NCBI GenBank assembly: GCA_963741005.1
Contig: CAVUGQ010000005.1
Location: 271,965 to 335,964 of the forward strand
Direction of reading: 5' to 3'
DNA from: Candidatus Bathyarchaeota archaeon
GTDB lineage: Archaea; Thermoproteota; Bathyarchaeia; Bathyarchaeales; Bathycorpusculaceae
DNA length: 64,000 bases
Positions 313-20,936 of this stretch are shown in pieces (position 1 is the first letter of the stretch; each line of letters begins with the position of its first letter). Both the position numbers and the translations under genes were made by a program. Under the pieces are notes generated by a model that searched no databases, was not told where the DNA came from, and saw only the letters and a list, made by a program, of their open reading frames with translations.

Positions 313-1179
313 TCAATTAGGAAAAAAGTTATTGAAATCGTAAGAGCCTCCTTGTGCCCTAATTTTTAGGCTGTGGTTGCCTTCAGGGAGAGTGGGCGCT
401 GTTATGGAAGTACTATATTGACTAATGCTGGGACCTTGAGTAAGAGTCCAATGCTCATACGGAATACTAACAGTTGTGTTATCTATGGTATACCATATAT
501 TAGCTATAACAGTACTTTTGAAGTATTGAGGCTGTTTAACACTAAAGCTGATGTTGAATGTGCCTGAGTAGTCAGTGCTGTTTTGGGGGCTACTTATTGA
601 AATGATTGGTGGCTTAGCATCTGATGGAGCATCCATCTGTTTAGCCAACCCAAAGGGATTAGCACTAGCTACACCAATTACTTGTGTTCCAACCAATACA
701 GAGATTGTTAGAAGTACAGCAAAGATAACTTGCCTTCCAGTGTTTGCTTCAAGGTGGCTTCTTGGATTAGGCATGGATGTTCTATTTTCCCATGTGTCCG
801 TTGAGGGGTCATAAACCTCGTTGACATTAGTAACATAGCCATCACTTTTAATGGTGGTTGCTCCGCCTATGCAGTAAATCTTGTTTTGGACGACCGCTAT
901 GCCAAACGAGCATCTGTGAGTAGGCATAGGTGTCTTGGAAGACCATGTGTTAGTTTCTGGGTCATAGACTTCATTGGTGCCAAGGATGTTTTGAGTACCG
1001 CTAATACCACCAATAGCGTAGATTTTTCCATCTACCACGGCTACGCCTAACATGCTTCTAGCGGTAGGCATAGGAGTCACCGACATCCAAGAATCCTCAG
1101 CAACGGCAGACACAGTTTTAACCTCCACCACACATAATCCCATAAGCAAGAAGAGAAGCAGAACAATGCTTTTTCTCAT
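313..1179 (-). pseudogene. Mosaic ORF. N-terminal signal peptide and about 3 Kelch-type blades (GKIYAIGG, NKIYCIGG) are fused in frame to a surface-family paralog lacking its own start (VIFAVLLTISVLVGTQVIGVASANP...). The expected C-terminal anchor (SISIVYFKNHRMGRN) is out of frame at about 40-100.
   Basis: Signal MRKSIVLLLFLLMGLCVVEV. The 3' half is about 60% identical to the 51965..52552 product (PPIISxxSPQNS, YTIDN). Reverse-complement translation of 41-100 gives a TM plus basic tail in another frame. Confidence 0.45.
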
Positions 1180-1772
1180 GCTTTACCTCCTAATTTCTGA
1201 CCACGTTTTTTGAAGTAAATCAACGAGATTGAAGCAACAGCTACTATTACAATCACGAAGGCTATTGCGATAAGATAAGTTGGGTTTAGCATTTCAGAAA
1301 ATAGAGTTTGATTTGAAGTTGGAGAGGGTGTTGGGGAACTGGGAGTATTAACGGCAAATGTCACTGAATTAGAAGAGTTTGTATAAAGCATTTTAGAGCC
1401 TTGGGAATAAGATGCTTGTGCAAGAACAGTTATGTTATGATTACCTTCTCCCAATGGAGGTAAAGTAACTGACCCATGTATTTCTGCAACATATGGATCC
1501 CATGAATCGCTGGCTGAAATCTGATATTCCAGTATGCTACTATTACCTCCATCCAAACTGTAAGTTGCAAAATAGTTAATATTATAATTATACCAAGCTG
1601 TAAAGTTAAAAACAATACTGAGGTTAGTACCTTGCTCATATATCATTTTTTGAGGTTCGACACTAATGTTAATAACAGAAGTGAATGGATAGCTTGCTTT
1701 TGAATAAGGAAGAACAGCTAAACATAGAGTAGTTAGGAGAATTAATAAGAGCAAAATCCCTTCACGCTTCAA
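1176..1772 (-). CDS. Secreted surface-family protein with C-terminal TM plus basic tail (IAIAFVIVIVAVASISLIYFKKRGQK)
   Basis: Signal peptide MKREGILLLLILLTTLCLAV, many N-x-S/T sequons, PTPSPT linker, C-terminal anchor. Stop overlaps the next start. Confidence 0.7.
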   Translation of the reverse strand: MKREGILLLLILLTTLCLAVLPYSKASYPFTSVINISVEPQKMIYEQGTNLSIVFNFTAWYNYNINYFATYSLDGGNSSILEYQISASDSWDPYVAEIHGSVTLPPLGEGNHNITVLAQASYSQGSKMLYTNSSNSVTFAVNTPSSPTPSPTSNQTLFSEMLNPTYLIAIAFVIVIVAVASISLIYFKKRGQKLGGKA

Positions 1773-1820
1773 TCTATTTCATCCCTGTTAGCAAGTGTAT
1801 TAGCTATAATTTAGCTCTCC

Positions 1821-2540
1821 TTAGAGAACAGTCTTTTCCTCTAAGAGAACAGCTACACCTCTCTTAGACTTACGCCTCTTAAAGTAAACCAATGAGATAG
1901 AAGCAACAACTAACAGAGTTATGACACTCAGGAATGGTAACTCTGGAGTTGTAGGAGTTGGAGTTGGATTCACTGCACTAGTGAAATAGATAGTGTCAGA
2001 GACAATAATTGGGTATTCATAGATTGGTTGCCCATCATAAATTGCCCCAGCCTTCTCATTTGAACCTGGATAATGTGAAAGGCTGTAGGTATGAGACGTT
2101 ACAGTTACGTTTAATGTATGCATGCCTGGGGTTGTTTGGTTTATCCAATCACAAATGCTATTTAATGAAAATTGGCCTCTTGGGTCATCAGGGTGAGTCG
2201 TAGTTTTGTTTCCATTAAAGTATTTGTCTATATGATATGCAGAGTAGTGAGCTGAAAGATTATCATCCAAACTAACTTCAACAGAATTTACTTCACCTAT
2301 ATAACGCCAAGGCCAATGGGTAGCATTCCAAGAATCTGGTTGTTTTACTGTAAAGTTTAGTGGTATGTTGGGTGTGTTGTATGTTGAATAATTTTGTGGT
2401 GCCATAATTGTGAGGCAAGGTTTTTCAAGGTTGGGGGTTTGTGTAAAAGGAACTGGATTAGCCTCTACCTCAACAACCTGTAGCCCAGCAAGTGCAAAAA
2501 TTACAAGCGTTACAGCAAATAAAGTATATTTTCTGTTCAT
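1821..2540 (-). CDS. Secreted surface-family protein, PEL-TM-RRK C-terminal sorting signal
   Basis: MNRKYTLFAVTLVIFALAGLQVVEVEANP signal. C-terminus TPTPTTPELPFLSVITLLVVASISLVYFKRRKSKR. Confidence 0.7.
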   Translation of the reverse strand: MNRKYTLFAVTLVIFALAGLQVVEVEANPVPFTQTPNLEKPCLTIMAPQNYSTYNTPNIPLNFTVKQPDSWNATHWPWRYIGEVNSVEVSLDDNLSAHYSAYHIDKYFNGNKTTTHPDDPRGQFSLNSICDWINQTTPGMHTLNVTVTSHTYSLSHYPGSNEKAGAIYDGQPIYEYPIIVSDTIYFTSAVNPTPTPTTPELPFLSVITLLVVASISLVYFKRRKSKRGVAVLLEEKTVL

Positions 2541-3129
2541 GGCTTCCCCTTTCTTCTCTTGAAGTAAAGTGACACACCAAGTAATGCAATGAAACTTATG
2601 CCAAAAGCAAATAAGAGTAACTCTTGCATTGGAAATTTGGTAGATGAGATAAAATAGAACTGCGCTGTCTGGGATAAGTAATTGGCATTCAGTATTCTAC
2701 TGCTTGAAAGCTGTACTCCCCAATAGATTGTTAGGGTATGATACCCTTCTGCCAAGTTAGCTATATAAAACTGACCAGTAAAGATGTGTCTTAAACTATC
2801 ATCTTCCCTCATCTGAACATTTTCAATCTTAATCCCTTGATTAGTCATATTTTTGCCATCTAACACATAGAAGAAGTCTCCATTCCAATACGTATCTTAT
2901 CTTGGTTAGCCTCTGAAAGGTAGAAGAAGCTGTTAGCAGTTGCATTAAACACAACATGGATTGATGAACTGCTGAAACTTGAAGAATTAGAAGGAGATTG
3001 GATAGTTATAGCTATCCCACCTACATATGGAGGAGGAAGAGGATTAGCTTCTACTTTCCCTATGGGTAACATCCCAACCAATATAGAGATAAGAAGTATT
3101 AATGCAAAGATGCTTATTCTTCTCTTCAT
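2537..3129 (-). pseudogene. Frameshifted surface-family gene, paralog of 53960..54655. Split into ORFs 2860..3129 (signal peptide half) and 2537..2866 (anchor half).
   Basis: N-terminus MKRRISIFALILLISILVGMLPIGKVEANP matches MKRRIALFAFILLMSVLIGVLPIGKVEANP of 53960..54655. The two ORFs overlap by 7 nt in different frames. Downstream half ends LYFKRRKGKP. Confidence 0.6.
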
Positions 3130-3803
3130 GCCTTCCCCTTTCTTCTTCTAAAGTAAAATAGAACACCTAATCCTATGACAACTGCAACGGATAATATGCC
3201 TATAGTGTAGCTTTGTTGGATAGCTATTAGTTTTTCTTGGAAAGCCTTTTGACTAGGGTTTACTGTTGACCATTGTGTTGGCTTTGTGCTTGGTGATGTT
3301 GAAGGTGCAGGTATATTATTTGGTATATCGCTTGAAAACTCTACGTAGAATTCAATTATTGTAGAGCCTACTGTTAAGTTATGCCAGCCTTTGGTTAAGT
3401 TTGGCAAAACAACGCTACCTTTTAGGGAATAAACGGCATATGGCAAATAATAGGGGTAATTTGTAATGGGAGAGGAAGGGTTAATTTCATCTCTAATCTC
3501 TTTGTATTTGATAACTTCTATTTCTGAGATTCTCTGTGACTCTCCGCCATCTATTTTGTAGTAAATATTATGATTAGCAGGGCTACTCTGAGAAATATAG
3601 GATGTTCTATGTTCTGCTGTGAAGTTAAAAATGACAGGGTTTGAGTAGTGGCTGTTGTTTTTTGGTGATTGAATGGTTACAGTGGTATAGCTTGGTTTCA
3701 TGCCCATAGGATTGGCTTTGGTAATTTCAATAACTTGTATTTCAACAACTAACGCTAAGATTGTTATTAGGATGATTGTTGTTGCCAATAGTTTCTTTGG
3801 CAT
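3126..3803 (-). CDS. Operon-leading surface-family protein (MPKKLLATT class) with C-terminal TM plus RRRKGKA
   Basis: MPKKLLATTIILITILALV signal. C-terminus VLFYFRRRKGKA. Conserved promoter block lies upstream at 3804-3877. Confidence 0.7.
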   Translation of the reverse strand: MPKKLLATTIILITILALVVEIQVIEITKANPMGMKPSYTTVTIQSPKNNSHYSNPVIFNFTAEHRTSYISQSSPANHNIYYKIDGGESQRISEIEVIKYKEIRDEINPSSPITNYPYYLPYAVYSLKGSVVLPNLTKGWHNLTVGSTIIEFYVEFSSDIPNNIPAPSTSPSTKPTQWSTVNPSQKAFQEKLIAIQQSYTIGILSVAVVIGLGVLFYFRRRKGKA

Positions 3804-3877
3804 ATATCGTTCCTGTTATATTATGTGAGTGAGTTTGCTTAAGTGGTTTTTTGTCAAACTTTCTTGTCTGGGGTTTG
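3804..3877 (-). promoter_or_regulatory. Conserved promoter/operator block of MPKKLLATT operons (palindrome GTCAAG-N4-CTTGAC, TTTGACAAAAAACCACTTAAGC, TAATATA box, leaderless ATG)
   Basis: Reverse complement is near-identical to 60661-60740, 62216-62304 and 51311-51365. Confidence 0.6.
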
Positions 3878-4510
3878 TCAAGTTTTCTTGACTTGGCGGT
3901 ACTTATGGATTAGAGCTACGGTAAGTATTGAGGCTAAAAGAGGCAGTATTATATACCAAGAAAACTCTGGAACAGAAGGAGTTGGGGTTGAATTAGCAGA
4001 TGAAGTGGGAGTTGGATTCATTTGGTATACAGATATAGGAGCACTTCTTCCTGTGTGACCATTTCCGTCGTTTACATAAACTACTATATCAGAGCCAGCC
4101 TCACTCATATTTATAAAACCTCTCCAACTGCCTTCAGTAAATGCACCTGACATGGATGGGCTGATTGTACCTTTACTTGCACTAAAGCTAACATAACCTG
4201 TAAAATTTCTGTCCCAATAACCATTAGCATAAAGTGCAAACAGTCCTACTTCAAAGGTTCTCCCCAAAGTGACATTACTTGGAACCAGAACACTAAAACC
4301 CCCAACTCCAGGGTCCTCTGGAACTGACAGTTCAGTTGTTTGAGGAAATGAAGGTGTAATGGTTACATTTGATGTAGATTGAATAGTGGTAGCCATAATA
4401 GCCATACTATGGTGGTGAAGGGGATTAGCATCTACTAACTCAACTGCTTGTATCCCAATCAACATTGACACAACAAGGATTAAAGCAAATACGGCATATC
4501 TTCTCTTCAT
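3878..4510 (-). CDS. Surface-family protein with HHH motif and PEF-CTERM-like tail (VPEFSWYIILPLLASILTVALIHKYRQVKKT)
   Basis: About 97% identical over most of its length to the 61598..62230 product, in inverted orientation. Signal MKRRYAVFALILVVSMLIGIQAVELVDANP. Confidence 0.75.
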   Translation of the reverse strand: MKRRYAVFALILVVSMLIGIQAVELVDANPLHHHSMAIMATTIQSTSNVTITPSFPQTTELSVPEDPGVGGFSVLVPSNVTLGRTFEVGLFALYANGYWDRNFTGYVSFSASKGTISPSMSGAFTEGSWRGFINMSEAGSDIVVYVNDGNGHTGRSAPISVYQMNPTPTSSANSTPTPSVPEFSWYIILPLLASILTVALIHKYRQVKKT

Positions 4511-5871
4511 TGTTTCCCCTTTCTTCTCCTAAAGTAAACCAAGGAGATTGAAGTGACAGCTATAACCACAATCACAGAAGCAATTGCAATAAGAGCAATT
4601 GAATTTACCCAATAATTAGAATCTATGCCTTGACTTGGAGTTGGAGAATCAAATAGTGGGTTTGTGGTTGGAGTTTCTGTAGTCTCAGTTGGTTTCATTG
4701 TAACAGTTGGAAAGGGTTTTCGTGTTGCGCTTGGTGGTGATTTGGCTGAGTCGGTGCTCATAATTTCTTGCTCTTCACTGCTAACAGAAAAAGTGAATTC
4801 GCCGTCACCGGTTTGAACAACTGAGCATACAATTCCGTTAATCGTGATGTTCCATTGTGGATTTCCAGCAAAATCAAGTTTAATCAAATTTCCAGGGAAT
4901 GACGGGTTAGGAAAGCCGCTTCCCAATGCGTATCCACCATCATTTGTTTGGATGGCAGAGTAGACTAAACCCTCAAATCCGAATTGACTATACGTTTGGT
5001 TCCACACTAAAGCGCCATTCAAATCAGTTTTAAGGATGCAAAGGCTACCGTTCAACACTGACGCTAAGATGTAGCCTCCATCGATTGTTTGAATAAATGA
5101 TTTAGGCTCAAAAAAAGCGCGATCCCAACTGTAGGTTTGTTTCCATAACATTTTTCCTGAGGCGTCAGTTTTGATCATCCAAATGCTTGCATTTGTCTTA
5201 TAAGGGTTAATTAATCCTAAGATTGCGTATCCGCCATCAATTGTTTGTACAACTGACACGCCTTCGCTCGCCTCCTGATTGGCGTACGTTTGATTCCATT
5301 CGGTATAGCCATTTGAATTTAGCTTCCCCAGCCAGCATGCTTTGCCAGTGGAGCTAACCATTGCGAAGCCACCATCACTGGTCACAATTAACGCTTTTCC
5401 GCCATTTAGGTTATTGTAAGTTTGATTCCACAAAATATTGCCCATGCTATCAGTCTTTATAATACCGACCCCCTTGTTGAAGTTGCCTGCAAGCGCATAT
5501 CCTCCATCTGGAGTTTGCACAAGCGAGGTCACATCACCCGAGATTAGGCTGTTCCAATCATTGTTTTTCATTTGGCTAAAGTAGGGTTGAATCCATTGCT
5601 GGTTACCCGCATAGTCCAGCTTAACAAGCCAAGGACCTATGTTTGCAAGGCTAAGTACCGCAGATTTGCCAGCTAATGCGTAGCCTCCATCGCTGGTTTG
5701 AATCATACAATTACCTGAGTACGAATTGGCAAAATCACCCAATTTGAGCGTTTTCTGCCATACAATCGCAGGAGCCGAAGAAGCTGAATCAGCCAAAACC
5801 AAGCACGCTTGAGCTGAAATCGTTATGCATAGAAGTGCGAAAACAATGATTGCTACATGTCTGATTCGCAT
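4507..5871 (-). CDS. Secreted beta-propeller-like repeat protein (about 7 repeats containing QT-DGGYALAG / W-QTY) with T/P linker and C-terminal TM-RRRKGKQ anchor
   Basis: Repeats QTSDGGYALAG, QTPDGGYALAG, VTSDGGFAMVSS, QTIDGGYAILG, QTIDGGYILAS, QTNDGGYALGS. C-terminus SISLVYFRRRKGKQ. Confidence 0.7.
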   Translation of the reverse strand: MRIRHVAIIVFALLCITISAQACLVLADSASSAPAIVWQKTLKLGDFANSYSGNCMIQTSDGGYALAGKSAVLSLANIGPWLVKLDYAGNQQWIQPYFSQMKNNDWNSLISGDVTSLVQTPDGGYALAGNFNKGVGIIKTDSMGNILWNQTYNNLNGGKALIVTSDGGFAMVSSTGKACWLGKLNSNGYTEWNQTYANQEASEGVSVVQTIDGGYAILGLINPYKTNASIWMIKTDASGKMLWKQTYSWDRAFFEPKSFIQTIDGGYILASVLNGSLCILKTDLNGALVWNQTYSQFGFEGLVYSAIQTNDGGYALGSGFPNPSFPGNLIKLDFAGNPQWNITINGIVCSVVQTGDGEFTFSVSSEEQEIMSTDSAKSPPSATRKPFPTVTMKPTETTETPTTNPLFDSPTPSQGIDSNYWVNSIALIAIASVIVVIAVTSISLVYFRRRKGKQ

Positions 5872-5934
5872 GATTACTACTTGAGATAGGTCGCTATAAA
5901 AGACTTTTTGTAAAAGTCTTCTTGATTGGGTTTG

Positions 5935-7167
5935 TCAAGGTTTCTGCACATTAGCAGTCTTTCTACGCCTAATTACAAGAGCAATGGTAAGCGTTACGGC
6001 AAACATGGGTAAAATAGCTGACCAAGATAGCTCTGGAACAGGAGTGGGACTTGGTGTAGTGACAGATGGTGCAGTGGTGCTGGCTATCCAACCCTCGCCA
6101 GGAGAAGTTATGGATCTTGAACCGGCAAGTACATAATCGTTACCATTTTGAATTACGGCGTATGTTCCATCATATGGCAGGAACCATTGTATTTTTCCAG
6201 AAGCTTCAATCTTTGTTATGCCTGATTCAACAGCTACCGCGTAGCTGCCGTCGTTTGTTTTGATGATAGAATGAACTGAAGTTTCGTTAACCTGATTGTA
6301 GGTTTGATTCCAAACAATGGCACCGGTAGAGTCAAACTTAACCAAACATAAAGTCTGGTCTACTATACCTGCTATAATGTAGTCGTTATCTTCTGCCTGA
6401 ATTACTCCAGTTCCTTGGTCATCTTTGGGGGTGCCATAAGTTCGGTTCCACAGCATTGTTCCCGAGGAGTCAGTTTTAACTAGCCACATATCCCACGTGT
6501 CTGTAACATGGGAATACGTTGAACCTGCAATCACATAGCCGCTGTCAACAGTTTGAACCAATGAACCAGCCAGTTCATCGTTTGAGCCACCATAAGTTTG
6601 GACCCACTTTGTATCACCTTTGGAATTGATTTTAGCTAACCAAAAACCTCCTCCATGGAGGCTTCCGGACATTGCATATTCGTTATCGGATGTTTTTATT
6701 ATGGTTCTCAATGATACGTTGTTGTATGAGTGTTTCCACTGAACATTGCCTAAAGCATCCGTCTTAACTAGATCAGCACAAATAAAAATGTAACCGCTAT
6801 CGTTAGCTTGAATAATAGAAGTTACTTGTCCCAAGTTTAGGTAAGCATCGCTTAAGCCCTGTTCCCACACTTTGTTGCCTGAGGAGTCAAGTTTGAGGAG
6901 CCAAGAATTACTTGTAGTTTGCCCAGGTATTCCCAATTCAACTACATATCCACCTAACACATAGCCGCCATCAACGGTGGCGGTCATTGCCTCAATTCCA
7001 CAATAGGTGCCATAAGTATAGGTTTTACTCGACTCAATTGTTGGCAAAGCAACAGATTGGGCTAAAACAAAATTCGAAGAGTGCAGAACGGTTGATGCTA
7101 ATGTGAGAGTTAAAATTAAAACAAACAAGAAAATGCTGCGATTTGCCATGTTTAAAAGATGGGACAA
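5935..7167 (-). CDS. Secreted beta-propeller-like repeat protein, paralog of 4507..5871, PEL-TM-RRRK tail
   Basis: Repeats VDGGYVLGGY, QANDSGYIF, QTVDSGYVIAGS, KTNDGSYAVAV. C-terminus VPELSWSAILPMFAVTLTIALVIRRRKT. Confidence 0.7.
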   Translation of the reverse strand: MSHLLNMANRSIFLFVLILTLTLASTVLHSSNFVLAQSVALPTIESSKTYTYGTYCGIEAMTATVDGGYVLGGYVVELGIPGQTTSNSWLLKLDSSGNKVWEQGLSDAYLNLGQVTSIIQANDSGYIFICADLVKTDALGNVQWKHSYNNVSLRTIIKTSDNEYAMSGSLHGGGFWLAKINSKGDTKWVQTYGGSNDELAGSLVQTVDSGYVIAGSTYSHVTDTWDMWLVKTDSSGTMLWNRTYGTPKDDQGTGVIQAEDNDYIIAGIVDQTLCLVKFDSTGAIVWNQTYNQVNETSVHSIIKTNDGSYAVAVESGITKIEASGKIQWFLPYDGTYAVIQNGNDYVLAGSRSITSPGEGWIASTTAPSVTTPSPTPVPELSWSAILPMFAVTLTIALVIRRRKTANVQKP

Positions 7168-7677: not shown

Positions 7678-8241
7678 ATGAGTGAGAAGAAAACGACTTT
7701 GAGTGTTCCGGCTGCTTATGTGCCGTTGCTGGAAGATATTAGGTTCTTGAAGAGTGATGAGCAAAATCCGAATAGGATGACAATTAAGCAGTTGGAAGAG
7801 GTTTGGTGTAGCCTTAAGAAGCATGGGTGGGCTTTTCCAATTGTTACGGATATGGCTGGTGTTTTTGTGGATGGTGAGCAGCGGGCTCAAGTTTGCAGGG
7901 AGCATGGGGAGTTTTTTGCTCCGGTATTGCGGTTGTCTATTTCTGATGTTGATCGCAGGGTGCTTCGGCAGAGGCTTAACAAACTTAAGGGGAAACATAA
8001 CAAAGAGTTGGATGTTGCTGAGTTTAAGCGGATCGCTGAGCTGGGCGAGAAAGAGGATCTTAAACTGTTGTTGCTGTCTGTTGGGGAGCGGTTGCCGGAT
8101 GATTTTGATGGTAAAAGGGATTCGGTGACTATTCCTGAGACTTACGAGCTCATTATTGTATGTAAAGATGAGACGGAGCAGCAGCGTCTTTATGAGAAAT
8201 TTAAAGCGGAGGGATATACGGTACGGATTTTGACATTGTAA
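7678..8241 (+). CDS. ParB N-terminal-like nuclease domain protein
   Basis: ParB/Srx-like motif region AFPIVTDMAGVFVDGEQRAQVCREHG. 187 aa. Start overlaps the stop of the upstream small ORF. Confidence 0.5.
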   Translation: MSEKKTTLSVPAAYVPLLEDIRFLKSDEQNPNRMTIKQLEEVWCSLKKHGWAFPIVTDMAGVFVDGEQRAQVCREHGEFFAPVLRLSISDVDRRVLRQRLNKLKGKHNKELDVAEFKRIAELGEKEDLKLLLLSVGERLPDDFDGKRDSVTIPETYELIIVCKDETEQQRLYEKFKAEGYTVRILTL

Positions 8242-8279
8242 AATCTTGGAGTCAAGCAGACAGTTTCAGGGCTCAAAGC

Positions 8280-8903
8280 GTGGTTGGCTCATTTACGCTC
8301 CTGGATGTGAAGTTGGAGAAGCGCATTAAGGGTTCACTTCCGATTGAAGAATCGCCTTGGCAGGTAGGCGTGATCGTTGGGCGCAGCGGATCCGGCAAGA
8401 GCAGCATCGCTAAAGAGCTGTTTGCTGAAGCGTACATTCGGGCTTTTGATTATCGCAGTAAGAGTATCCTGGATGATTTTCCAGCTGGCCTGCAGACAGG
8501 TGAGATTACTAAGGCGCTTTCAAGCGTGGGCTTCGCGTCGCCTCCGGATTGGCTCAAAAGCTATGATTGCCTTAGCCAGGGGGAGAAGATGCGTGTTGAC
8601 ATTGCACGTGCGTTATGCTTGGACAAGGACTTGATTGTCTTTGATGAATTCACGTCTGTTGTTGATCGGGAGATTGCTAAGGTTTCTGCGTTTGCCATCG
8701 CAAAAGCTGTTCGGCGTTCTAAAAAGCAGTTCATTGCTGTCACTTGCCATTATGATGTGGTTGATTGGCTTGAACCCGATTGGGTACTCTGTACAGATAC
8801 AATGGAGTTTACCCGAAAAAAAGAAGCAGGCCGCCCGTTAACATCCAAGTTTATCGGTGCGGCTCTAATCTGTGGGAAATGTTTCGGCAGTATCACTATC
8901 TAA
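8280..8903 (+). CDS. Compact ABC-type ATPase (Walker A GRSGSGKSS, signature LSQGEKMRV, Walker B LIVFDEF, H-loop TCHYD). Possibly fused by a -1 frameshift to the downstream GNAT ORF.
   Basis: Motifs read directly. 124-nt overlap with the 8780..9298 ORF in another frame. An A7 run lies at about 8814-8820. Confidence 0.6.
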   Translation: MVGSFTLLDVKLEKRIKGSLPIEESPWQVGVIVGRSGSGKSSIAKELFAEAYIRAFDYRSKSILDDFPAGLQTGEITKALSSVGFASPPDWLKSYDCLSQGEKMRVDIARALCLDKDLIVFDEFTSVVDREIAKVSAFAIAKAVRRSKKQFIAVTCHYDVVDWLEPDWVLCTDTMEFTRKKEAGRPLTSKFIGAALICGKCFGSITI

Positions 8904-9298
8904 GCGGATCTATTGCTAAGGGTTCCAGGTGCTACGTTGCAATGTACCAGGATAAGCCAGTTGGGTTCATCGCGGTTATGCATATTCACATGAAGGCCAG
9001 GTATTACAGGGTGCATCGATTAGTGATTTTGCCTGATTACCAGGGCATAGGCTTAGGCAAAAGATTATTGAATTTTATAGCGGAGCTCTACACTTCACAA
9101 ACGAAAGCGCCCTTCTACATTGTTACCAGCAATCCTCAGATTGTCCGCGGCAACTTGGATCGTTGGAGTGTGAAGCGGTATGGGCATGTGAAGCGGTCTG
9201 ATAAGCAAGATACCAGGATGAACAATGAAATTAAGGCGAGTGTTAGTGCCAAGCGTATTAGCATAACTTTAGAGTACAAACCTGTGAGGGCGCCTTAA
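8780..9298 (+). CDS. GNAT-like acetyltransferase domain ORF (Q-x-x-G-x-G motif YQGIGLGKRLL). True start uncertain; likely entered by frameshift from the ATPase ORF.
   Basis: ILPDYQGIGLGKRLLNFIAELY resembles the GNAT acetyl-CoA-binding motif. Overlap with the upstream ORF. Confidence 0.4.
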   Translation: MGTLYRYNGVYPKKRSRPPVNIQVYRCGSNLWEMFRQYHYLSGSIAKGSRCYVAMYQDKPVGFIAVMHIHMKARYYRVHRLVILPDYQGIGLGKRLLNFIAELYTSQTKAPFYIVTSNPQIVRGNLDRWSVKRYGHVKRSDKQDTRMNNEIKASVSAKRISITLEYKPVRAP

Positions 9299-9339
9299 AA
9301 ATTGTTTTTCAAATTTTTGTTTGAAAAAGCGGGGGTATA

Positions 9340-9852
9340 TTGTTGAAGGAGGTTCTTTTTCGTCGGCGTTTAAGGATGTCTCGTATGTTGGCGATGAATA
9401 ATTCGCTTCATGTTGTAGTTGAGACTTTAAGTAAAGAGTTTGATGTTACACCTCAAGCGATTTACCATGACCACGCTAACATGCATGTTTGGTCTCATGA
9501 AATTGAGCAGGATAAGCAGTTGACTGCTATTTTGCGGGCTCGTTTAGGGCTTCTTAGTCGTGAGGCGTTGACGTTGGCGATGGAGACTAAGAAGGATCAG
9601 AATGTTAAGGATAAGTTTGTGAAGATTGGGGCGATTAATTCTGCTTTGAAGGTTACTGATCGTGAGATTTCGTTGGCTCAGGAGTTGGGGTTGGTTGAGC
9701 GTAAGCCTTTGGAGGTTGAGTCGACAAATAGGAATTTGACTGTTATTCGAATGTGGCAGCCAACTGATGAGACAGTAAACGGAGAGCTTTCTAAGGTATT
9801 GCCGTTTGCAAAGCTAAGAAGCTTAGAGGTGGTAAGTGCATCGAAAATTTGA
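9340..9852 (+). CDS. Hypothetical protein with N-terminal HTH-like segment. Possible small terminase or DNA-binding protein.
   Basis: 170 aa. SKEFDVTPQAIYHDHANM resembles an HTH. Position after the ParB/ATPase genes. Confidence 0.3.
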   Translation: MLKEVLFRRRLRMSRMLAMNNSLHVVVETLSKEFDVTPQAIYHDHANMHVWSHEIEQDKQLTAILRARLGLLSREALTLAMETKKDQNVKDKFVKIGAINSALKVTDREISLAQELGLVERKPLEVESTNRNLTVIRMWQPTDETVNGELSKVLPFAKLRSLEVVSASKI

Positions 9853-10375
9853 AGGATGGGGAATGAAGCTGATGGGGTCTCATGAGCGGAAGCGTGCTAA
9901 GAAACGTAGGCAACAGGCGCGGGATTTGTTGAAGAGTTTGGAGGGTAATTTAGTTTAGGGGTCATCGGCGCCGTGTAGCAGTGGTGTGCGAGATTCTTGT
10001 TTGTTGTAGAGTTGGTCCTGTTTTGGCTTCTGTGATTACTCGAAGGTGTAACCTTTGTAATGATACTTTTCATTTTTTCGGTGACGAGTTGGTGCGCTGC
10101 GGTTTCTTGTCTAAGAGCATTAATTATGAGCAGATGTTTTATGGTACGACGCGGTTGGGGCTTGATTTTCTGCACAAGTTTGATGAATTGCAGGAGTTAG
10201 TGGCGCCGCTTGAGAGATCTTTTGGGAAACTGTTATTGTAGCATAGTTAGGTTTATGCGACTATTCAGTAATTAACAACAGAAAAACAACAAAAATAAGA
10301 AATCTTAAAACAAGACCTTGATAAAGTTAAGTTTATCAAGCTTTTCATTGTAAATTTAGTTTATGCTTTTACTTT

Positions 10376-11359
10376 TTAAACGTTCGGTTTGTTTTGAAAG
10401 ATAGTTTTTCGATGCCTTCTATAAATTAACAAAACAAAACTTAAGGCAACAACTACCGCTATAAGAGCAATTATTAGAATTTGTTCGTTAACGGTTATCA
10501 TGGTCGGGGCTGGTGTAGGACTTGGCAAAGGTGTCGGTAACGGACTTTGTGACGGCAAAGGCAAAAACGCAGCAGTTTTCATTAAGTAAATAAAACCCCA
10601 ATATCCTTGATTCAAATAAGAGTTTGCAATGCCCAGACATGCAAGTGCTCCATCCGATGTTTCAATGATGGAAAATATTTTAAAAGGAAAAGTGATGGTA
10701 CCATTATAATAATTGGCAGGACCTGAATAAGTAAAATTCTCAATCCATTGCGTATCGTTATTTGAATCTGTTTTCACAAGAGTAGGAAAAGAAACAAAGG
10801 TAGGAAAAAGATTTACATTTGCTGGTTCAAAGTAAACGAACCCGCCATCGCTGGTTTGAATATTGGGTGAGGCAATGGCTAAGTTTAAGACCGTACTTGT
10901 ATTTTCATACCATTGAATACCCCCTTTTGAATCCAATTTTATCAGTGTAGGCGTAAACTGAAGGGGTATGCCTTGTGCGTTGCCATAATTGCTCCATTCT
11001 CCTGCTATTTCATATCCGCCATCGCTGGTCTGAATGAGGTTTGATGCATGAAATAAATTGATAGTTTTATTCCATTGCATGCTACCTAAAGAATCAAGCC
11101 TGTAAAGAGTTGAAGGAATAAAAAGGGATTGTTGGTAGGATTTGCCGCAATCTAAAAATGCGTATCCACCATCAATTGTTTGAATCAAGTTAGAAACTGA
11201 CTCAGTACTTCCCGACCCATATAATTTTTGCCATTGAGTGGCAGGAGGTGATGTGCTGCTTGAGGTTTGGGCTGAAACTAAAGTAAATTGAAGAATTATT
11301 AAGGACATTATGAAAACAGCGACAAGAAATGAATCGAAACTCTTACCTAAACTACGCAT
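10376..11359 (-). CDS. Secreted beta-propeller-like repeat protein (QT-DGGY repeats) with PT-rich linker and C-terminal TM plus basic tail
   Basis: QTIDGGYAFLDCG, QTSDGGYEIAGE, QTSDGGFVYFEP. C-terminus ILIIALIAVVVALSFVLLIYRRHRK. Confidence 0.65.
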   Translation of the reverse strand: MRSLGKSFDSFLVAVFIMSLIILQFTLVSAQTSSSTSPPATQWQKLYGSGSTESVSNLIQTIDGGYAFLDCGKSYQQSLFIPSTLYRLDSLGSMQWNKTINLFHASNLIQTSDGGYEIAGEWSNYGNAQGIPLQFTPTLIKLDSKGGIQWYENTSTVLNLAIASPNIQTSDGGFVYFEPANVNLFPTFVSFPTLVKTDSNNDTQWIENFTYSGPANYYNGTITFPFKIFSIIETSDGALACLGIANSYLNQGYWGFIYLMKTAAFLPLPSQSPLPTPLPSPTPAPTMITVNEQILIIALIAVVVALSFVLLIYRRHRKTIFQNKPNV

Positions 11360-11944
11360 AATTACACTAAAGAAACATATGCAATAAAAGCCTGTTCGTA
11401 AAGAAATCTGGACTAATCCAAGTCAACATTTCTTGACAAAAAAAGAAAGGTGGGTACACCCTACAGTGGGAAACGGTCATTGAATTAAGTTAGTCTTCTT
11501 TCTATGCCTAACTCTGGACAAAAAATACCTTTTCAAAATGAAGCTCTATATATTCACTTCTGGACCTCTTCTCTTTTGAGGCTTCTTTATCTATTTTGTC
11601 TAATACACGATTTGATAGGGCTATGCTTACTGGGTGTTTGCGCACTGTAACCTGAGCCTCTGAGTATTTGCCGCTTGTAAATATTCAAAAAATATAATTA
11701 AAAACTGCTAAAGAGTGACTTCTGCTGGTTTTTTTAATTTTTAAAAACCGTTGATTGAGCATAATTTTTGTGTTGATGAGGTTGATAGGGAGATTTTGCA
11801 GTTACTCTTCGAAGTAGGAAGCGTTGGATTATTCCCTAAGGACTTGGCCGGAAGGCTTGAGCGATTTAAAGTTAGTCGCCAACAGGTTAGTCGCCGATGA
11901 GATGGTGCATTCGCCGGGTTCTTTTCAGGAAATCGCAAAGATGT

Positions 11945-12286
11945 TTAAGTGAGTTTTTGGAAACGTACTTTTCCAACGTGTTCAAGAATCCATTTAACTA
12001 GTTGGTCGTAGGTTTCAGCGCCCAATTTTGTAAGCACAACATCATCGTTTGAATCAAACTCGATAAACCCTTTCTTTGCCATCCAATCTAAGTATTTGAT
12101 TAATCGGTCGTAAGATAAGCCAGTGGAGGTGGCAAGAGCAGTCTTGTTTGGTCTATTTTTTTCTCTTAGAGTCTTAATGACCCTTGCCAACACATACAGG
12201 TCAGGCTTTGAAATCGGCTCTCCTGAAGTCATTTTCAAACCACCGAAGCTCCCAAAGAAGCGAATCAAGACGCCCAACCTGTTCAT
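11945..12286 (-). CDS. Winged-helix transcriptional regulator
   Basis: 113 aa. Helix-turn-helix-like segment TALATSTGLSYDRLIKYLDWMAKKGFIEF. Confidence 0.5.
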   Translation of the reverse strand: MNRLGVLIRFFGSFGGLKMTSGEPISKPDLYVLARVIKTLREKNRPNKTALATSTGLSYDRLIKYLDWMAKKGFIEFDSNDDVVLTKLGAETYDQLVKWILEHVGKVRFQKLT

Positions 12287-12301
12287 AACGATAACGAAAG
12301 G

Positions 12302-12877
12302 TCATTTCATGCTTAGGGCCAGAACAAGAACCAGAGGAATCACAACCCACGAAATTGGGTCAAAGCTGAGATGAAGAGTATTTTGTATGATTCCTGACAA
12401 AACGCCAAAGAAAAAGAAGGCTACTGTCCACCAAGCGATTATCTTCACTGCTCCATAAAGCCCAAATCCAAGTTTTGCGAACCTTATGTCATTAAAGGTT
12501 TTTTCCCAGTTTGTTTCTTGCAAAAGCTTTAATGCGCCAGGTGTTCCTTCGCCCAATGTGCTTTTCCATTTCCCCTGCATTGTTGTTACGAGATTCAATT
12601 TCCGTCGAACCCATAAAAAGCCTGCAATCACTCCAAACAAAAGAATTATGGCGCTGTAAGAAGGAAGCACAAATGAAATTCCTATATAATCAATGTTATA
12701 CCCATAAAAAACAATCAGTAAGTTAACGATAATGTTTACTGTTTCTAAAGCTACTACCGAAGCTACAACTATTATTACAAAATCCGCCATAGCGTTGGCG
12801 AGTTCTCGGTATGCTTTAACCTGATCTAACGCGGTCATGAACTCAGTCATTTTGACTGTAAGGTTCTCTTCTGTCAA
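12302..12877 (-). CDS. Integral membrane protein (about 4 TM)
   Basis: Hydrophobic segments. Operonic with 11945..12286 and 12874..13371 (4-nt overlaps). Confidence 0.5.
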   Translation of the reverse strand: MTEENLTVKMTEFMTALDQVKAYRELANAMADFVIIVVASVVALETVNIIVNLLIVFYGYNIDYIGISFVLPSYSAIILLFGVIAGFLWVRRKLNLVTTMQGKWKSTLGEGTPGALKLLQETNWEKTFNDIRFAKLGFGLYGAVKIIAWWTVAFFFFGVLSGIIQNTLHLSFDPISWVVIPLVLVLALSMK

Positions 12878-13371
12878 AGTGCCACACCGTACCCTTGAAT
12901 GTTTACTTGGGCGTTTCCTTTAACAAGAAACCAGTAGACTGAAATTCCTGACGATAATCCTGGGTAAGTTTGATATTGAGAAAGGATCTGTTGGAAGGTG
13001 GTGCTGTTGTTTGATACGAACTCTACATCTATTGGATGATTATTTGAAATGTTAATCCCTTCAGTTTGAAGAGCAAAGCTTCCTGTATTTGACCCAGTGC
13101 TTGGTAGGATAACGGAGAATTTGTAGTGCGTCATTGCAGGTATATTAGTTGAGGTTCCGTTTGGAAATATCAGCGTCGTATTAGATTGTTTATCGACTTG
13201 GGCGGATATGTCAATTTCAACCCTAATATGAGCGTAAGCTGCCTTTGAAATCACCACGGTAGTTGAGTCACCTGCCCAAGTGTTAACATCAAGAGAGTGA
13301 AATGAAGATAGAACGGCAACTTGGCTGGACACAATAATAATTAATGCCAAGAGCACCCAGAGTTTTTTCAT
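12874..13371 (-). CDS. Secreted protein (signal peptide, beta-rich)
   Basis: MKKLWVLLALIIIVSSQVAVL signal. N-x-S/T sequons. Confidence 0.5.
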   Translation of the reverse strand: MKKLWVLLALIIIVSSQVAVLSSFHSLDVNTWAGDSTTVVISKAAYAHIRVEIDISAQVDKQSNTTLIFPNGTSTNIPAMTHYKFSVILPSTGSNTGSFALQTEGINISNNHPIDVEFVSNNSTTFQQILSQYQTYPGLSSGISVYWFLVKGNAQVNIQGYGVAL

Positions 13372-13604
13372 GAATCCTATTAAGGGAACTATGAATATAA
13401 GGCAAACTCACTGCCAAAGAGTATGGAGATTACCGTTCGAGGTAAACTGATTCTATGAGTTCGCTAGCCCTATGCCCCTTAGATTAGAATTGATCTGTGT
13501 ACATTAAAAGTCATTGTTTACCTGTTTTTCTTTTTGCGGTGCATTTTGCCTTCATAAACTCGAGTGTACGCATGGAACCTTTGCTGTTTATGTACTCGTG
13601 GCTT

Positions 13605-13740
13605 ACTGGTTTGTGTACTGTCGTGTTTACGACAATAAGCCATTAGTGCAGTCTGTTCCCAACTAATTAAACATGTCTCGCGGTGGCAGTCGGCATGCTG
13701 ATTTCGAGAAAATTGACTCAGCTTTCTTGACACACTACAA
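13605..13740 (+). repeat. Direct repeat R2 (partner of 7205-7335)
   Basis: See R1. Confidence 0.8.
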
Positions 13741-13794
13741 TAAAGATCCTAACCTTGGAGATTCGCTGGAGGCTGCTTTGTTTGGCTTTGACTG
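13672..13794 (+). CDS. Conserved small ORF (40 aa, MSRGGSRHADFEKIDSAFLTHYNKDPNLGDS...), paralog of 7269..7433
   Basis: Frame conserved with the R1 copy. Confidence 0.45.
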
Positions 13795-13924
13795 AGCGTG
13801 AGAAGAGAATTCTACAATTTGCATTCTGATGGCTTGAATGATTATAGAATTGCCAAGAAGCTAAAGATGGAAACACCCGAACTCTTTTTTGTGTTTTTTG
13901 CCAGCATGGGAGTTTTGAGGGAAT

Positions 13925-14539
13925 CTATTCAGCACTTTCCCCGATGGGGATAATCATGTCTATGGTTGTATGAGCACGAAGCCCTGTTAGCTGAATTGGT
14001 GCTACAAGATGAAAACATAAATCAATGGTGAGCTGCAGGTCGTTGGGTCTATCCTTTTGCACATTATGAAGGATAAATCGAAATTCTGCGTCGCCTCTTC
14101 CTGCTTTGCCTAGCCAACGGAAATCTTCAACGTTGAAATTGATGCCATCTAATTCCCTATTAAAACTGTATTGAACATTGCTCGGGTCAGATTTGAGATA
14201 GATGCTTCCCATGGCTGCGGACTCAAACTTAAAAACCATCGAATCAACTTCGATATCGTCTGCGTGGTTTATGATTAGCAGAGCCTCAGCAGAGGGTAAT
14301 GGGGTGAATGCATTTTGGAGAAAAAACTGAACTCTAGCGATAGTGATGTTGTTAGCATCGGTGAAGTTGCCGATGTATCCGCTTCCGTTGGGGTGGTTCT
14401 CAAGCAATAACGTTGTTTCGGTGAGTTCTTCGTAGTATAGAAAACGTTCGCTTGCTGAAAGCACGATTAAAGCAGAAAAAGTAATTATTAAAATCAGAAT
14501 AAAACCAATTATTGTTTTTCGTTTAACCAAACCTCTCAC
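13925..14539 (-). CDS. N-terminally anchored or secreted hypothetical protein
   Basis: TM/signal IIGFILILIITFSALIVLSA. 204 aa. Confidence 0.45.
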   Translation of the reverse strand: MRGLVKRKTIIGFILILIITFSALIVLSASERFLYYEELTETTLLLENHPNGSGYIGNFTDANNITIARVQFFLQNAFTPLPSAEALLIINHADDIEVDSMVFKFESAAMGSIYLKSDPSNVQYSFNRELDGINFNVEDFRWLGKAGRGDAEFRFILHNVQKDRPNDLQLTIDLCFHLVAPIQLTGLRAHTTIDMIIPIGESAE

Positions 14540-14711
14540 TCCCTCGGTTTAACCTTAGTTGCAACAGTATATTGTAAAATAAGATGTTAAACAAAAAGCA
14601 TTTGCTTAAACTGCTTAGGCATAGCAATCAGTCTTTCTATTTGTTTTGACCTTGCTTAAAAAATTTTAATTCTATGAGGTGTAGGGTATGCACCTAGTCG
14701 TGGGAAAAGGT

Positions 14712-15584
14712 CTACTTACTCAAGTCAGCGGTTTTTCGATGACTTCTAAAAAGTAGTAATGACAGAGCAACAATAATAGCTAGGAAGACTGCAACAACCG
14801 CAATTAATGTATTCAAAGGTACAGAAATTGGATTGCCAGTTGAGTTAGTTGTAGTTGGTGTTGAAGTAGGTGTTATGGCTGGATTCGACGATGACGTTGG
14901 GCTTGGTGAATTGGCACTTAACGGAGTGTTAGCAGGTATGTTTATTGTTTGTGTGTTGCTCCAATCGCTTGCTTTACCGGAAAAAAAATATGGAAAAAAT
15001 GGAGGATCACTGCCATTTCGACCGATTTGACCTATCATTGCTTGAACGTGGATATCGGTTTGTGTTCCTGCAAGACTCCCCACGCCCATTTGACCTTCTA
15101 TGTTGATTGTTGTAGTTGTATACTCAGAATTAGAGGGCACAAGGTACCCGTAATATGCATTGTAAATATCGGTCCACTGATCGGATAAATGCGGCTTAAC
15201 TTGAATGTTGTAGTAGAAGCCAAAAGCACCGATAAGATGTGCGTTGCTGTAATCAAATACAAGTGGTTGATTCTTAATTGTTAATTCTACCGCGCTGTAT
15301 TCATTACTGTAGCCAATGTTAGCTACAATCTGTCCTGTATTTTGGTCTAACTGGTAAGTTGTAGGTTGAGTGTAAGGAGGACCGACAAGCTGTACGGTGA
15401 ATGTTGGAACAGAAGGTCTAGGTATAGGAACAGGGGAAGCTGTAGGTGTCTGAGCACTTGCAGGGTTAACCATTATTATGCAAGAGACTGCCAAGATGAC
15501 CACAAGAAGTAACGAGACCCCCTTGCTTGTACTGCCCATGCTTAATCTTAGGAATGGTTTGCAGATAAAAGACTTCTCGTACAA
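14712..15584 (-). CDS. Secreted surface protein with C-terminal TM plus basic tail, paralog of 15660..16337
   Basis: Shared SDWSNTQTINIP and VQAMIG blocks. C-terminus LIAVVAVFLAIIVALSLLLFRSHRKTADLSK. Conserved promoter GAAGTCTTTTATC lies upstream. Confidence 0.65.
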   Translation of the reverse strand: MYEKSFICKPFLRLSMGSTSKGVSLLLVVILAVSCIIMVNPASAQTPTASPVPIPRPSVPTFTVQLVGPPYTQPTTYQLDQNTGQIVANIGYSNEYSAVELTIKNQPLVFDYSNAHLIGAFGFYYNIQVKPHLSDQWTDIYNAYYGYLVPSNSEYTTTTINIEGQMGVGSLAGTQTDIHVQAMIGQIGRNGSDPPFFPYFFSGKASDWSNTQTINIPANTPLSANSPSPTSSSNPAITPTSTPTTTNSTGNPISVPLNTLIAVVAVFLAIIVALSLLLFRSHRKTADLSK

Positions 15585-15659
15585 GACTCTTAACTAAAGT
15601 CAGTTAAAGTTTTTTGACTAACAAACAGAGGGTAGGTATACGCTTGCTTGGGAAAAGGT

Positions 15660-16337
15660 CTACTTACTCAATGAAGCGGTTTTTCGATGCTTAAGTATCA
15701 CGGCAATAGCGCATACCCCAAATATCAAAGGTATAACCACTAAAGATGATATCTCAGGAACTGTAGGGGTTGGTGTTGGATTTGGTGAGGGTGAGATTGT
15801 AGGGATAGTTTCAGGTATGTTTATTGTTTGTGTGTTGCTCCAATCGCTTGTTTCGCCCACAAACACATAGGGCATGAACCCGTTTTTGAAGGCGCCTCTG
15901 TCGCGGTGCCCAATCATAGCTTGAACCTGAAACGCGACTTCGCCAGACTTAGGGATAACGCCTACTCCTTGGCTGGTGTCCCTTGGATAATAAATCGTTT
16001 CCCCAGCAACATATGTCAACACTGTAGTGGAGGAGTTTGACTGCTGCGGATACCAGTCTTCTGCGTCTTCCACGTGGTAGAGTTCACTCCAGTTTTTGCC
16101 GTCGACACTTATGGCTACGTTGTAGAAGAATCCGTCGGGGTATTGGCTTGCGGCGTCGAAGGGTTGGTTTCTTATTGTTAGGGTTATGGTGGTTGTGTTG
16201 GCTTGGGTTTGTATGGTGAATTCTGGTATGGATGGTTTAGGTACTGACTGAGCATATGCAGTTTTAACTATAATTATGCTTGTGACTGCTAAGATAACAA
16301 CAAAAAGTAACGAGAACCCTTTGGTTATACTGCCCAT
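15660..16337 (-). CDS. Secreted surface protein with PEI-TM-KHRK tail, paralog of 14712..15584
   Basis: C-terminus VPEISSLVVIPLIFGVCAIAVILKHRKTASLSK. Same promoter motif at 16338-16395. Confidence 0.65.
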   Translation of the reverse strand: MGSITKGFSLLFVVILAVTSIIIVKTAYAQSVPKPSIPEFTIQTQANTTTITLTIRNQPFDAASQYPDGFFYNVAISVDGKNWSELYHVEDAEDWYPQQSNSSTTVLTYVAGETIYYPRDTSQGVGVIPKSGEVAFQVQAMIGHRDRGAFKNGFMPYVFVGETSDWSNTQTINIPETIPTISPSPNPTPTPTVPEISSLVVIPLIFGVCAIAVILKHRKTASLSK

Positions 16338-16613
16338 GAATAGTCTTAGAATGAATTGTAGATAAAAGACTTCTCGTACAAGACTCTTGACTGATTTTCG
16401 TAAAGGTTTATTGACTAAACTGTTTTGGCTTTTCTATTGAAATTTAGTTTATGCGTCGATTTTATATGTACGTGCTTGCTGACTTGCTACTAATTATATT
16501 CATGATTAACGTCCAGTCTGAAAGATTGAACGTCTGCTCTCCTGCGTAAGCGGGGTGAAAACGAGCAAAGAGCATCTTAAATTTTATGCAACTAACCAAG
16601 AGGGTGTTAACTG

Positions 16614-16889: not shown

Positions 16890-16900
16890 TGTAAGTAGAG

Positions 16901-17308: not shown

Positions 17309-17378
17309 CTGTGGTTTTGGTCATCCGAGCTGAATTTGAGCAGTAAAGGAATTATAATTATTTGAATGTGGCAGTTTA

Positions 17379-20766: not shown

Positions 20767-20936
20767 ATTCATGATGAACCAAATTGATTAGTGCGTGTGT
20801 GAACAGTTAGCTACATCAAATAGAGGAAGCCTTTGACTCGTGCACTCATCAATGCGTGCGTACCAAACCTAAATTGAGTTTGACAATTATTATTATCAAA
20901 AGACCCTAAATCCGCGAACCACCCTAATCACCACTC

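Follow-up and report, generated by a model that had tools for sequence, protein, structure and literature searches.

Background

Families of variable surface proteins in which conserved ends frame variable cores, and which are diversified by recombination, are known from Mycoplasma (Vlp/Vsa), Neisseria (pilE/pilS) and Plasmodium (RIFIN/STEVOR). Inverted duplications are also formed at inversion breakpoints as a result of staggered breaks, as described for Drosophila. Site-specific invertible DNA, which includes invertons, shufflons and the Hin/Gin systems, has been surveyed (PMC5903667), and in the archaeon Halobacterium salinarum 91-R6 two opposed copies of ISH3C were found 55.8 kb apart, with both orientations represented in PacBio reads (PMC7002104). 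Here we describe a 64,000-nucleotide (nt) stretch of the genome of a 'Candidatus Bathyarchaeota archaeon' (GenBank assembly GCA_963741005.1, contig CAVUGQ010000005.1, positions 271,965 to 335,964; hereafter the window), in which two closely related genes, referred to as HHH_L and HHH_R after the HHH motif in their products, lie in opposite orientations within the arms of a 771-nt inverted repeat that brackets a segment of 57 kb.

Both genes are members of arrays of surface-protein genes that flank a provirus-like region. As we argue below, the repeat is probably, though far from certainly, a by-product of homologous recombination that shuffles gene cassettes at conserved junction modules. In the literature we found nothing on this family or on inversions in Bathyarchaeia.

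The inverted repeat is an old mosaic

The left arm of the repeat (3772..4542, minus strand; pair I1 of the repeat finder) and the right arm (61566..62336, plus strand) are each 771 nt long and are separated by a spacer of 57,023 nt, window positions 3772-4542 corresponding without a gap to the reverse complement of 61566-62336. A base-by-base count in register gives 38 mismatches (95.1% identity), in agreement with the pairwise alignment and with the repeat finder, and the longest uninterrupted runs of identity are 125, 101, 55 and 51 nt. The other inverted pairs in the window are at most 185 nt long, with 72-91% identity, and are so short and weak that chance can be excluded as the source of the 771-nt repeat. 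An earlier, sequence-only reading of this DNA had described near-identical inverted repeats of about 700 bp, at 3803-4510 and 61598-62305. The nucleotide alignment of the two copies confirms that the similarity exists at the DNA level and not at the protein level alone, but the 708 nt proposed fall short: the repeat extends 31-32 nt further at each end, so that it also covers part of the upstream gene's C-terminal tail and the opening 32 nt of the gene downstream. Outside both arms the similarity falls to the random level. The GC skew follows the gene strand and is uninformative with respect to inversion.

Each arm contains one HHH gene with an intact open reading frame (ORF) of 210 codons: HHH_L at 3878..4510 on the minus strand and HHH_R at 61598..62230 on the plus strand, which correspond to the database proteins P0033 and P0034, both encoded on one 797,683-bp contig in NCBI and ENA. 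The protein identity of about 97% given by the earlier reading applies to residues 31-210 only (175/180, 97.2%), while the complete proteins are identical at 195 of 210 positions (92.9%). The statement that the repeats bracket a virus-like cluster is borne out, as a provirus-like region lies within the 57-kb segment.

The identity between the arms is distributed very unevenly. It amounts to 84% in the last 32 nt of the gene upstream of HHH and to 81.3% in the first 25 codons of HHH, which encode the signal peptide (14 mismatches, with all ten changed codons non-synonymous), rises to 98.0% in the mature part with the stop codon (11 mismatches in 558 nt), and is 94.6% in the intergenic block and 87.5% in the first 32 nt of the gene that follows the block. 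The difference between the signal-peptide part and the mature part is highly significant (Fisher's exact test, p = 5e-8), and the tract of high identity is delimited by an abrupt edge at the signal-peptide boundary. The signal-peptide part of HHH_L (4436..4510, minus strand; partner 61598-61672) is 88% identical to that of the gene at 52549 and 87% to that of the gene at 57142, compared to 81% for HHH_R. Because it is closer to other members of the family than to HHH_R, its similarity is at the family background, and what exceeds that background is limited to the mature part, the anchor and the intergenic block. Both ends of the arms are ordinary junction modules of the family. The 771-nt tract is a mosaic, and, as the comparison with related genomes described below indicates, an old one.

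Two divergent arrays of anchored surface proteins

The window contains roughly 22 ORFs of the same family, organized in two divergent arrays on the two sides of the provirus. The left array (313..7167, minus strand) comprises nine family ORFs transcribed away from the centre and probably continues beyond the start of the window, where a Kelch-repeat member is located at the very edge (313-1179, minus strand). The right array (51366..62916, plus strand) comprises 13 family ORFs and is interrupted by non-family DNA at 58394-60740. The family members are clustered paralogues that combine common signal peptides and anchors with divergent cores. Their signal peptides are of two conserved types: genes internal to an array begin with MKRRYAVFAVIF...IGIQAVEVVDANP and their start codon overlaps the preceding stop codon as ATGA, while genes that follow a 74-nt intergenic block begin with MPKKLLATTII. 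Nearly all members end with a transmembrane helix and the tail LVYFKRRKGK. Their ectodomains, by comparison, include Kelch, SBBP-like beta-propeller and immunoglobulin-like (Ig-like) types, which are mutually about 30% identical or unrelated. Family junction modules are repeated seven times or more in the window, with 60-88% nucleotide identity, and a junction module of about 190 nt alone recurs seven times in the right array (repeat D1).

Directly upstream of HHH_L, on the inner flank of the left arm, lies a gene for a surface protein of 454 amino acids (aa) with beta-propeller repeats (4507..5871, minus strand), and directly downstream of HHH_R, on the outer flank of the right arm, lies gene G (62305..62916, plus strand; 203 aa). 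Further genes are referred to as A (48642..48938), B (53250..53963), D (3126..3803) and F (1821..2540, minus strand). Between D and F, two minus-strand ORFs, 2860..3129 with a signal peptide only and 2537..2866 with an anchor only, resemble a single frameshift-split member of the family, which is either a pseudogene or the result of a homopolymer error in the long reads.

The HHH protein opens with a signal peptide and the HHH motif, continues with an Ig-like beta-sandwich and ends, after a Pro/Thr linker, with a PEF motif, a transmembrane helix and a basic tail, and each HHH gene shares an ATGA overlap with the gene upstream of it. It matches no Pfam family; a word-indexed search identified 32 homologues. 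An AlphaFold model built with 20 homologues has a mean pLDDT of 61, with 70-78 in the core, and shows a signal helix, a disordered stretch with the HHH motif, a beta-sandwich of 7-8 strands, the Pro/Thr linker and the transmembrane helix. In the PDB this model best matches Ig-like domains found in the S-layer protein SbsC, in cohesins, in filamin and in intimin; the modest confidence of the model limits the fold claim to 'Ig-like beta-sandwich'. As modelled, HHH is a small anchored surface protein, and the several N-X-S/T sequons in its sequence suggest that it is probably glycosylated. In the order of linker, PEF motif, transmembrane helix and basic tail it resembles the archaeosortase substrates with a PEF-CTERM signal (NCBIfam TIGR03024), but the two copies score 13.6 and 16.1 bits with that model, below its cut-off of 23 bits, and the PEF motif is missing in most family members. 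No archaeosortase gene is present in the 64-kb window.

The intergenic block downstream of each HHH gene measures 74 nt (3804..3877 on the minus strand, upstream of D; 62231..62304 on the plus strand, upstream of G) and includes, as described for the left copy, two GTCAAG-N4-CTTGAC-like palindromes and an A/T-rich box. The sequence-only reading regarded these blocks as near-identical promoters adjacent to the HHH genes. They are indeed mirrored and 94.6% identical, but they lie downstream of the HHH stop codon and ahead of the next gene with its MPKK-type start. The block is not the promoter of HHH but a regulatory module that recurs throughout the family and belongs to the gene after it. A third copy of the module with an MPKK-type start is found at 60653..60772 (plus strand), which is a direct repeat of 62217-62336 (88%, spacing 1564; repeat D5) and is 90% identical to 3726-3891 in inverted orientation (I3), and a fourth at 51278..51397 (plus strand; D5, I14), at the head of the right array. 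The alignment of five copies of the block itself includes those at 60667-60740 and 51292-51365 and a partial one at 5872-5934, and the block is found in many related loci too.

The palindrome GTCAAG-N4-CTTGAC, with up to two mismatches allowed, occurs 14 times in the window versus 2.8 times expected, often as pairs 24 nt apart. The sites (3853-3892, 5934-5949, 11398-11437, 16400-16415, 36042-36057, 38915-38930, 51302-51317, 60652-60691 and 62216-62231) coincide with the promoter-like blocks of the arrays and with intergenic DNA on the provirus side, e.g. upstream of 10376..11359. This distribution suggests that a single DNA-binding regulator may be common to the arrays and the central region.

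Relatives in other genomes and the age of the duplication

In contigs sampled at one genome per species, relatives of HHH were found at six loci, all of them in metagenome-assembled genomes (MAGs) designated 'Candidatus Bathyarchaeota archaeon' with isolate names that begin with MFD, which we take to stand for the Microflora Danica long-read survey. In none of the assemblies of these six loci does HHH have more than one close (>80% aa) copy. Metagenome contigs of JGI yielded only distant members of the HHH subfamily, and IMG/VR yielded no relatives.

HHH_L and HHH_R form a pair in the neighbour-joining tree built from the mature part, but narrowly: at the nucleotide level they are 97.8% identical, while HHH_L is 97.0% identical to the orthologue at locus L007 and 95.7% to that at L001. 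At synonymous sites even this small difference disappears, as the number of synonymous substitutions per site (dS) in the mature part is 0.055 between the two copies, 0.056 between HHH_L and L007, 0.060 between HHH_L and L001, and 0.075 between HHH_R and L007. The ratio of non-synonymous to synonymous substitutions (dN/dS) between the copies is 0.21 in this part, which indicates that both are kept by purifying selection. When the 25 coding differences between them were polarised with six outgroups, about 16 turned out to be derived in HHH_R and nine in HHH_L; they are private and interleaved along the gene.

The time scale at the level of strains is set by a sister strain, represented by a contig of 2,096,218 bp that encodes the proteins P0001, P0169 and P0175. 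Its counterpart of the 454-aa neighbour is identical at 453 of 454 positions, and its G and A proteins are 100% identical to those of the window. In the HHH cluster at 90% identity this strain is represented by a single protein, P0001, which is of the left type and differs from HHH_L at three residues. Over residues 31-210 the two HHH copies of the window differ at five positions and the sister strain at two. Judged by these data, the copies diverged well before the sister strain split off. HHH_L, HHH_R and P0001 have in common the tail ALIHKYRQVKKT, which is missing from the other orthologues, and which identifies the copies as within-lineage duplicates as opposed to independent imports.

Cassette turnover and a proposed mechanism

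The repertoire of family genes turns over between close strains as well as between species. No member with at least 90% identity was found in the sister strain for D, for the genes at 60741, 51366 and 57680, or for the terminase of the provirus, so that four of the six non-HHH array genes that were checked have no such counterpart there. Across species, the edges of the homologous cassettes are the edges of modules: the homology of HHH to L007 ends in the anchor tail, and at least four different anchor tails are seen among the HHH orthologues. The same applies to gene F, whose core is 95.9% identical to L007 at the nucleotide level, while the 58 nt that follow the ATG and the 55 nt that precede the stop codon fall outside the homology. 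In the window F has a signal peptide of the internal type (MNRKY.../MKRR-type) and an extended tail, whereas its five relatives, including the one in the sister strain, have the MPKK-type (P0175, P0171, P0172, P0174 and L007:13015-13680). Gene F is a case of a junction-module swap at the strain level.

Neighbouring cassettes also appear to differ in age. In the comparison of the window with L007, A has a dS of 0.37 and B one of 0.23, but F has 0.061 and HHH 0.056, a 4- to 6-fold spread between neighbours, which points to exchange of individual cassettes between lineages of Bathyarchaeota. In the right array, the unit composed of gene 60741..61601, HHH_R and the module is bounded by direct repeats of 120 nt (60653-60772 and 62217-62336, 88%). 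Units framed in this way are what one expects to be gained or lost through unequal homologous recombination, and the absence of the unit from the sister strain fits this.

We infer from these observations the following mechanism. The HHH arms are paralogous copies of one cassette, made up of the sequence for the mature ectodomain and the membrane anchor together with the regulatory module that lies downstream. The ends of the family members, i.e. the anchor tail, the ATGA overlap that leads into the next signal peptide, and the promoter-like block followed by an MPKK-type start, are nearly the same in DNA, and non-allelic homologous recombination between them would copy, swap, insert and delete cassettes within and between arrays. 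One such event would have placed an HHH cassette into each of the two opposed arrays, and thereby generated the 771-nt inverted repeat. The duplication is old relative to the divergence of the strains, and purifying selection maintains both copies. Once present, the repeat would offer RadA suitable sites for inverting the 57-kb, provirus-bearing segment, although a flip would exchange nothing except the near-identical 3' halves and the downstream modules, and would turn no gene on or off.

Several points weigh against this explanation. The recombination is inferred solely from the comparison of a handful of MAG contigs, and the synonymous differences are few, 6-8 per comparison. The conservation of the junction modules could result from functional constraint alone, i.e. 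on the signal peptide, on the anchor and on translational coupling, and constraint at the level of codons or RNA, as opposed to exchange, may be part of the reason why HHH and F have such low dS between lineages. The sister strain, moreover, might hold two identical HHH copies, which would mean active homogenisation there.

Alternative explanations

The most serious alternative, which we regard as possible but on the whole unlikely, is that the 57-kb segment was really inverted, with the repeat as the mark and perhaps the means of the event. Homologous recombination between the HHH copies would have flipped the segment, and may still flip it within the population, or a duplicative inversion with staggered breaks would have left the second copy as the footprint of a breakpoint. 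The sequence-only reading had proposed that the copies are a substrate for inversion, and this is supported in so far as they are opposed on one replicon, identical at the DNA level and physically adequate for homologous recombination, with runs of identity (125, 101 and 55 nt) on hand for strand exchange; ISH3C in H. salinarum provides a precedent of similar geometry (PMC7002104). At L007 (ENA ERZ25039554, contig_33991), A, B, a single HHH and F (A 98%, B 86% and F 89% identical at the aa level) are all co-oriented, which is the order predicted for the flipped segment. The orthologue of the 454-aa gene at L015 and L016 has genes from outside the family, and no HHH gene, behind it, which implies that the junction of the 454-aa gene with HHH_L, i.e. 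the inner edge of the left arm, is derived. The right-side context of HHH_R and G is retained at L001 and L020, the latter with a G orthologue of 94.5% nucleotide identity and a different family gene ahead of it. However, the contrast in dS to L007, about 0.06 for HHH and F against 0.37 for A and 0.23 for B, shows that HHH and F have a history different from that of A and B, and we have therefore downgraded the order at L007 as direct evidence of inversion: an inverted translocation of the HHH-F block accounts for it equally well. The reciprocal junction, 454-HHH-G, was found in none of the relatives searched via homologues of the 454-aa protein and G (with L018 too distant to be informative), and on the 133-kb L007 contig there is no close orthologue of the 454-aa protein among the 120 best hits listed. 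The pattern of presence and absence in the sister strain fits 454-HHH-F and 454-HHH-G alike. Gene conversion between the copies, whether recent, as put forward by the earlier reading, or ongoing (concerted evolution), would explain their near-identity, and it could draw on the pairing of the copies in the neighbour-joining tree (97.8% versus at most 97.0% to the orthologues) and on the sharp 5' edge of the high-identity tract at the signal-peptide boundary. We find it improbable: the dS between the copies (0.055) equals that between HHH_L and the orthologues of other MAGs (0.056-0.060), so that with synonymous sites included the paralogues are not clearly closer than the orthologues; the 11 differences in 558 nt are private and interleaved, with no long converted patch; the signal-peptide part stands at the family background; and the copies differ more from each other than from the sister strain, which contributes one left-type protein only.

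It is more improbable still that the repeat belongs to a programmed invertible element, similar to invertons or shufflons, or that its arms are the terminal inverted repeats of a large mobile element with the provirus as cargo. Such an element would account for a discrete virus-like segment bracketed by inverted repeats with surface-protein genes at its edges, but Pfam and PHROGs scans of ORFs of at least 110 aa, which do not comprise every ORF of the window, detected no tyrosine or serine recombinase, integrase or transposase, and a site-specific inversion was rejected on this account. The arms are of gene length and 5% diverged, as opposed to short exact sites, and as judged from the anatomy of the locus a flip would preserve every connection between gene and promoter and would not act as an expression switch. 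A transposon or another element with terminal inverted repeats was likewise rejected, as there is no transposase among those ORFs, no target-site duplication at the outer edges of the arms, where the flanks are unrelated, and as the arm ends lie within the coding sequence of paralogous genes. The least probable explanation, in our opinion, is an assembly artefact, i.e. a repeat falsely duplicated or mis-joined in a long-read assembly. The source is indeed a MAG, but the arms differ at 38 positions without a single indel and with intact reading frames, a repeat of 0.77 kb is shorter than typical long reads, and the four flanks are backed by synteny elsewhere (the right side by L001 and L020, the 454-aa gene by L015 and L016, and F by L007).

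The provirus and other features of the window

The DNA between the arrays contains a region similar to head-tailed proviruses, which spans at least 7678..44318 (plus strand). Matches to Pfam families identify a terminase (17379), a portal protein (18626), a DUF2213 protein (29358), a capsid protein of the HK97 fold (31539) and a Laminin_G_3 protein (41982), and a tape-measure-like protein is encoded at 40307. Genes between 7678 and 44318 have homologues in L024, a viral genome of 36.5 kb from IMG/VR. The terminase (17379-18644, plus strand) has relatives of 74-78% identity in IMG/VR viral genomes of 30-36 kb and members of at least 90% identity on ENA contigs of 10-33 kb, with none at that level in the sister strain; this distribution indicates that the provirus belongs to a circulating group of viruses and is strain-specific here.

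Between the portal and DUF2213 genes (window 21834-30413) there are two genes for PAS-domain histidine kinases, 22892..24796 and 25460..28480, the second with a receiver domain. They are surrounded by repeats (21915-22117 versus 29257-29461, 85-92%; 22201-22597 versus 25188-25583, 82-86%; 24937-25009 versus 29701-29773, 86%), and some of the flanking fragments duplicate the 5' portion of the DUF2213 gene. The provirus looks as if it were rearranged or decaying by duplicative insertion of host-type sensor genes. A direct repeat of 163 nt (82%) has its first copy just within the inner end of the left array (7212-7374) and its second one 6.4 kb further in (13616-13778). The first copy is 84% identical to the DNA upstream of the 454-aa orthologue at L005, L015 and L016, and the flanks of about 20 kb at these three loci contain no matches to provirus genes. 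This repeat may be a remnant of an attachment site or the boundary of a nested element. L015 and L016 are otherwise collinear, but L015 contains an insertion of about 6 kb (12153-18168) directly after the 454-aa orthologue, which includes a fragment of an integrase (Phage_integr_3) and a transposase-like gene (DUF772), so that the array end with the 454-aa gene is a hot spot of insertion outside the window's genome as well. An ice-binding-like protein (PF11999, E = 1.5e-52) is encoded at 49749-50501 (plus strand), in the stretch that separates the provirus from the right array. The window contains no tRNA genes.

The non-family island of the right array is 95% identical to L001 at the DNA level around a DUF3800-X RNA (RF02984; 60049-60121, minus strand; 53.7 bits versus a gathering score of 38.2), which was the only match in an Rfam scan of the window. 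At 59043-59875 (plus strand), overlapping small genes for a 107-aa protein and a 170-aa DUF3368 protein resemble a toxin-antitoxin module. A short module (62917-62954), which directly follows the final stop codon of a sub-operon, recurs with 91-97% identity at L001, L003, L004, L007, L009 and L020, in some of these loci repeatedly, and may be a common terminator or operon-end element.

Comparison with known systems

The repeat taken by itself is an ordinary consequence of paralogy, which may or may not mediate an inversion, and a flip would have no obvious regulatory effect; as a caution, long-read assemblies of the region could legitimately occur in two orientations. The wider pattern, seen in an uncharacterised family from Bathyarchaeia whose members are anchored surface proteins of the Ig-like and beta-propeller kinds, is more useful: ends conserved at the DNA level, ectodomain cassettes of very different ages (dS 0.06-0.37 between the same two genomes) and a repertoire that differs between strains otherwise about 99.8% identical. 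If it holds true, the locus offers a tractable case of recombination-driven surface variation in an uncultured and globally abundant group of archaea, next to an integrated head-tailed virus. The boldest version of this idea, which we offer as a speculation more likely wrong than right, and with less conviction than the inversion discussed above, is that the arrays constitute a cassette-exchange system for surface variation in Bathyarchaeia. The modules would serve as recombination handles, cassettes such as HHH and F would move within and between genomes, the resulting hypervariability of the surface at the strain level would possibly be driven by the viruses that integrate beside the arrays, and the repeat would be a footprint of this process that lets the provirus segment flip.

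Among the described systems, the opposed ISH3C copies of H. salinarum are similar in geometry: gene-length inverted repeats, with a similar spacing (57 kb here), on an archaeal chromosome, for which general recombination suffices and no dedicated invertase is involved. Unlike ISH3C, the HHH repeats are diverged paralogous protein genes (95%) and not identical insertion sequences, they are accompanied by no transposase, and the locus is known from its assembled orientation alone. With invertons, shufflons and the Hin/Gin systems it has in common a segment flanked by inverted repeats with surface-protein genes at the edges, but the arms of 771 nt are 5% diverged in place of short exact sites, no recombinase was found among the larger ORFs, and the connections between promoters and genes would remain unchanged by a flip. 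As at the duplicated inversion breakpoints of Drosophila, a segment that differs in gene order from the relatives has an inverted duplicate at both of its ends; the HHH duplicates, however, are old and have their edges in pre-existing homologous modules, which makes an origin by breakage and fill-in indistinguishable from homologous recombination.

The variable surface families Vlp/Vsa, pilE/pilS and RIFIN/STEVOR are similar in organization: clustered paralogues have common signal peptides and anchors at the DNA level and unrelated ectodomains, the repertoire varies between close strains, and the edges of the cassettes fall at the conserved ends. Matches to HMM profiles of RIFIN/STEVOR are far below the cut-off, which indicates a shared architecture and not homology. 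In contrast to those families, the locus described here shows no sign of an expression site, of silent cassettes or of switching, all of its genes appear to be intact and co-transcribed members of operons, and they belong to an uncultured archaeon from soil. The feature described here is a pair of inverted paralogous repeats in a recombining family of surface proteins, a fresh example of a kind that is already known.

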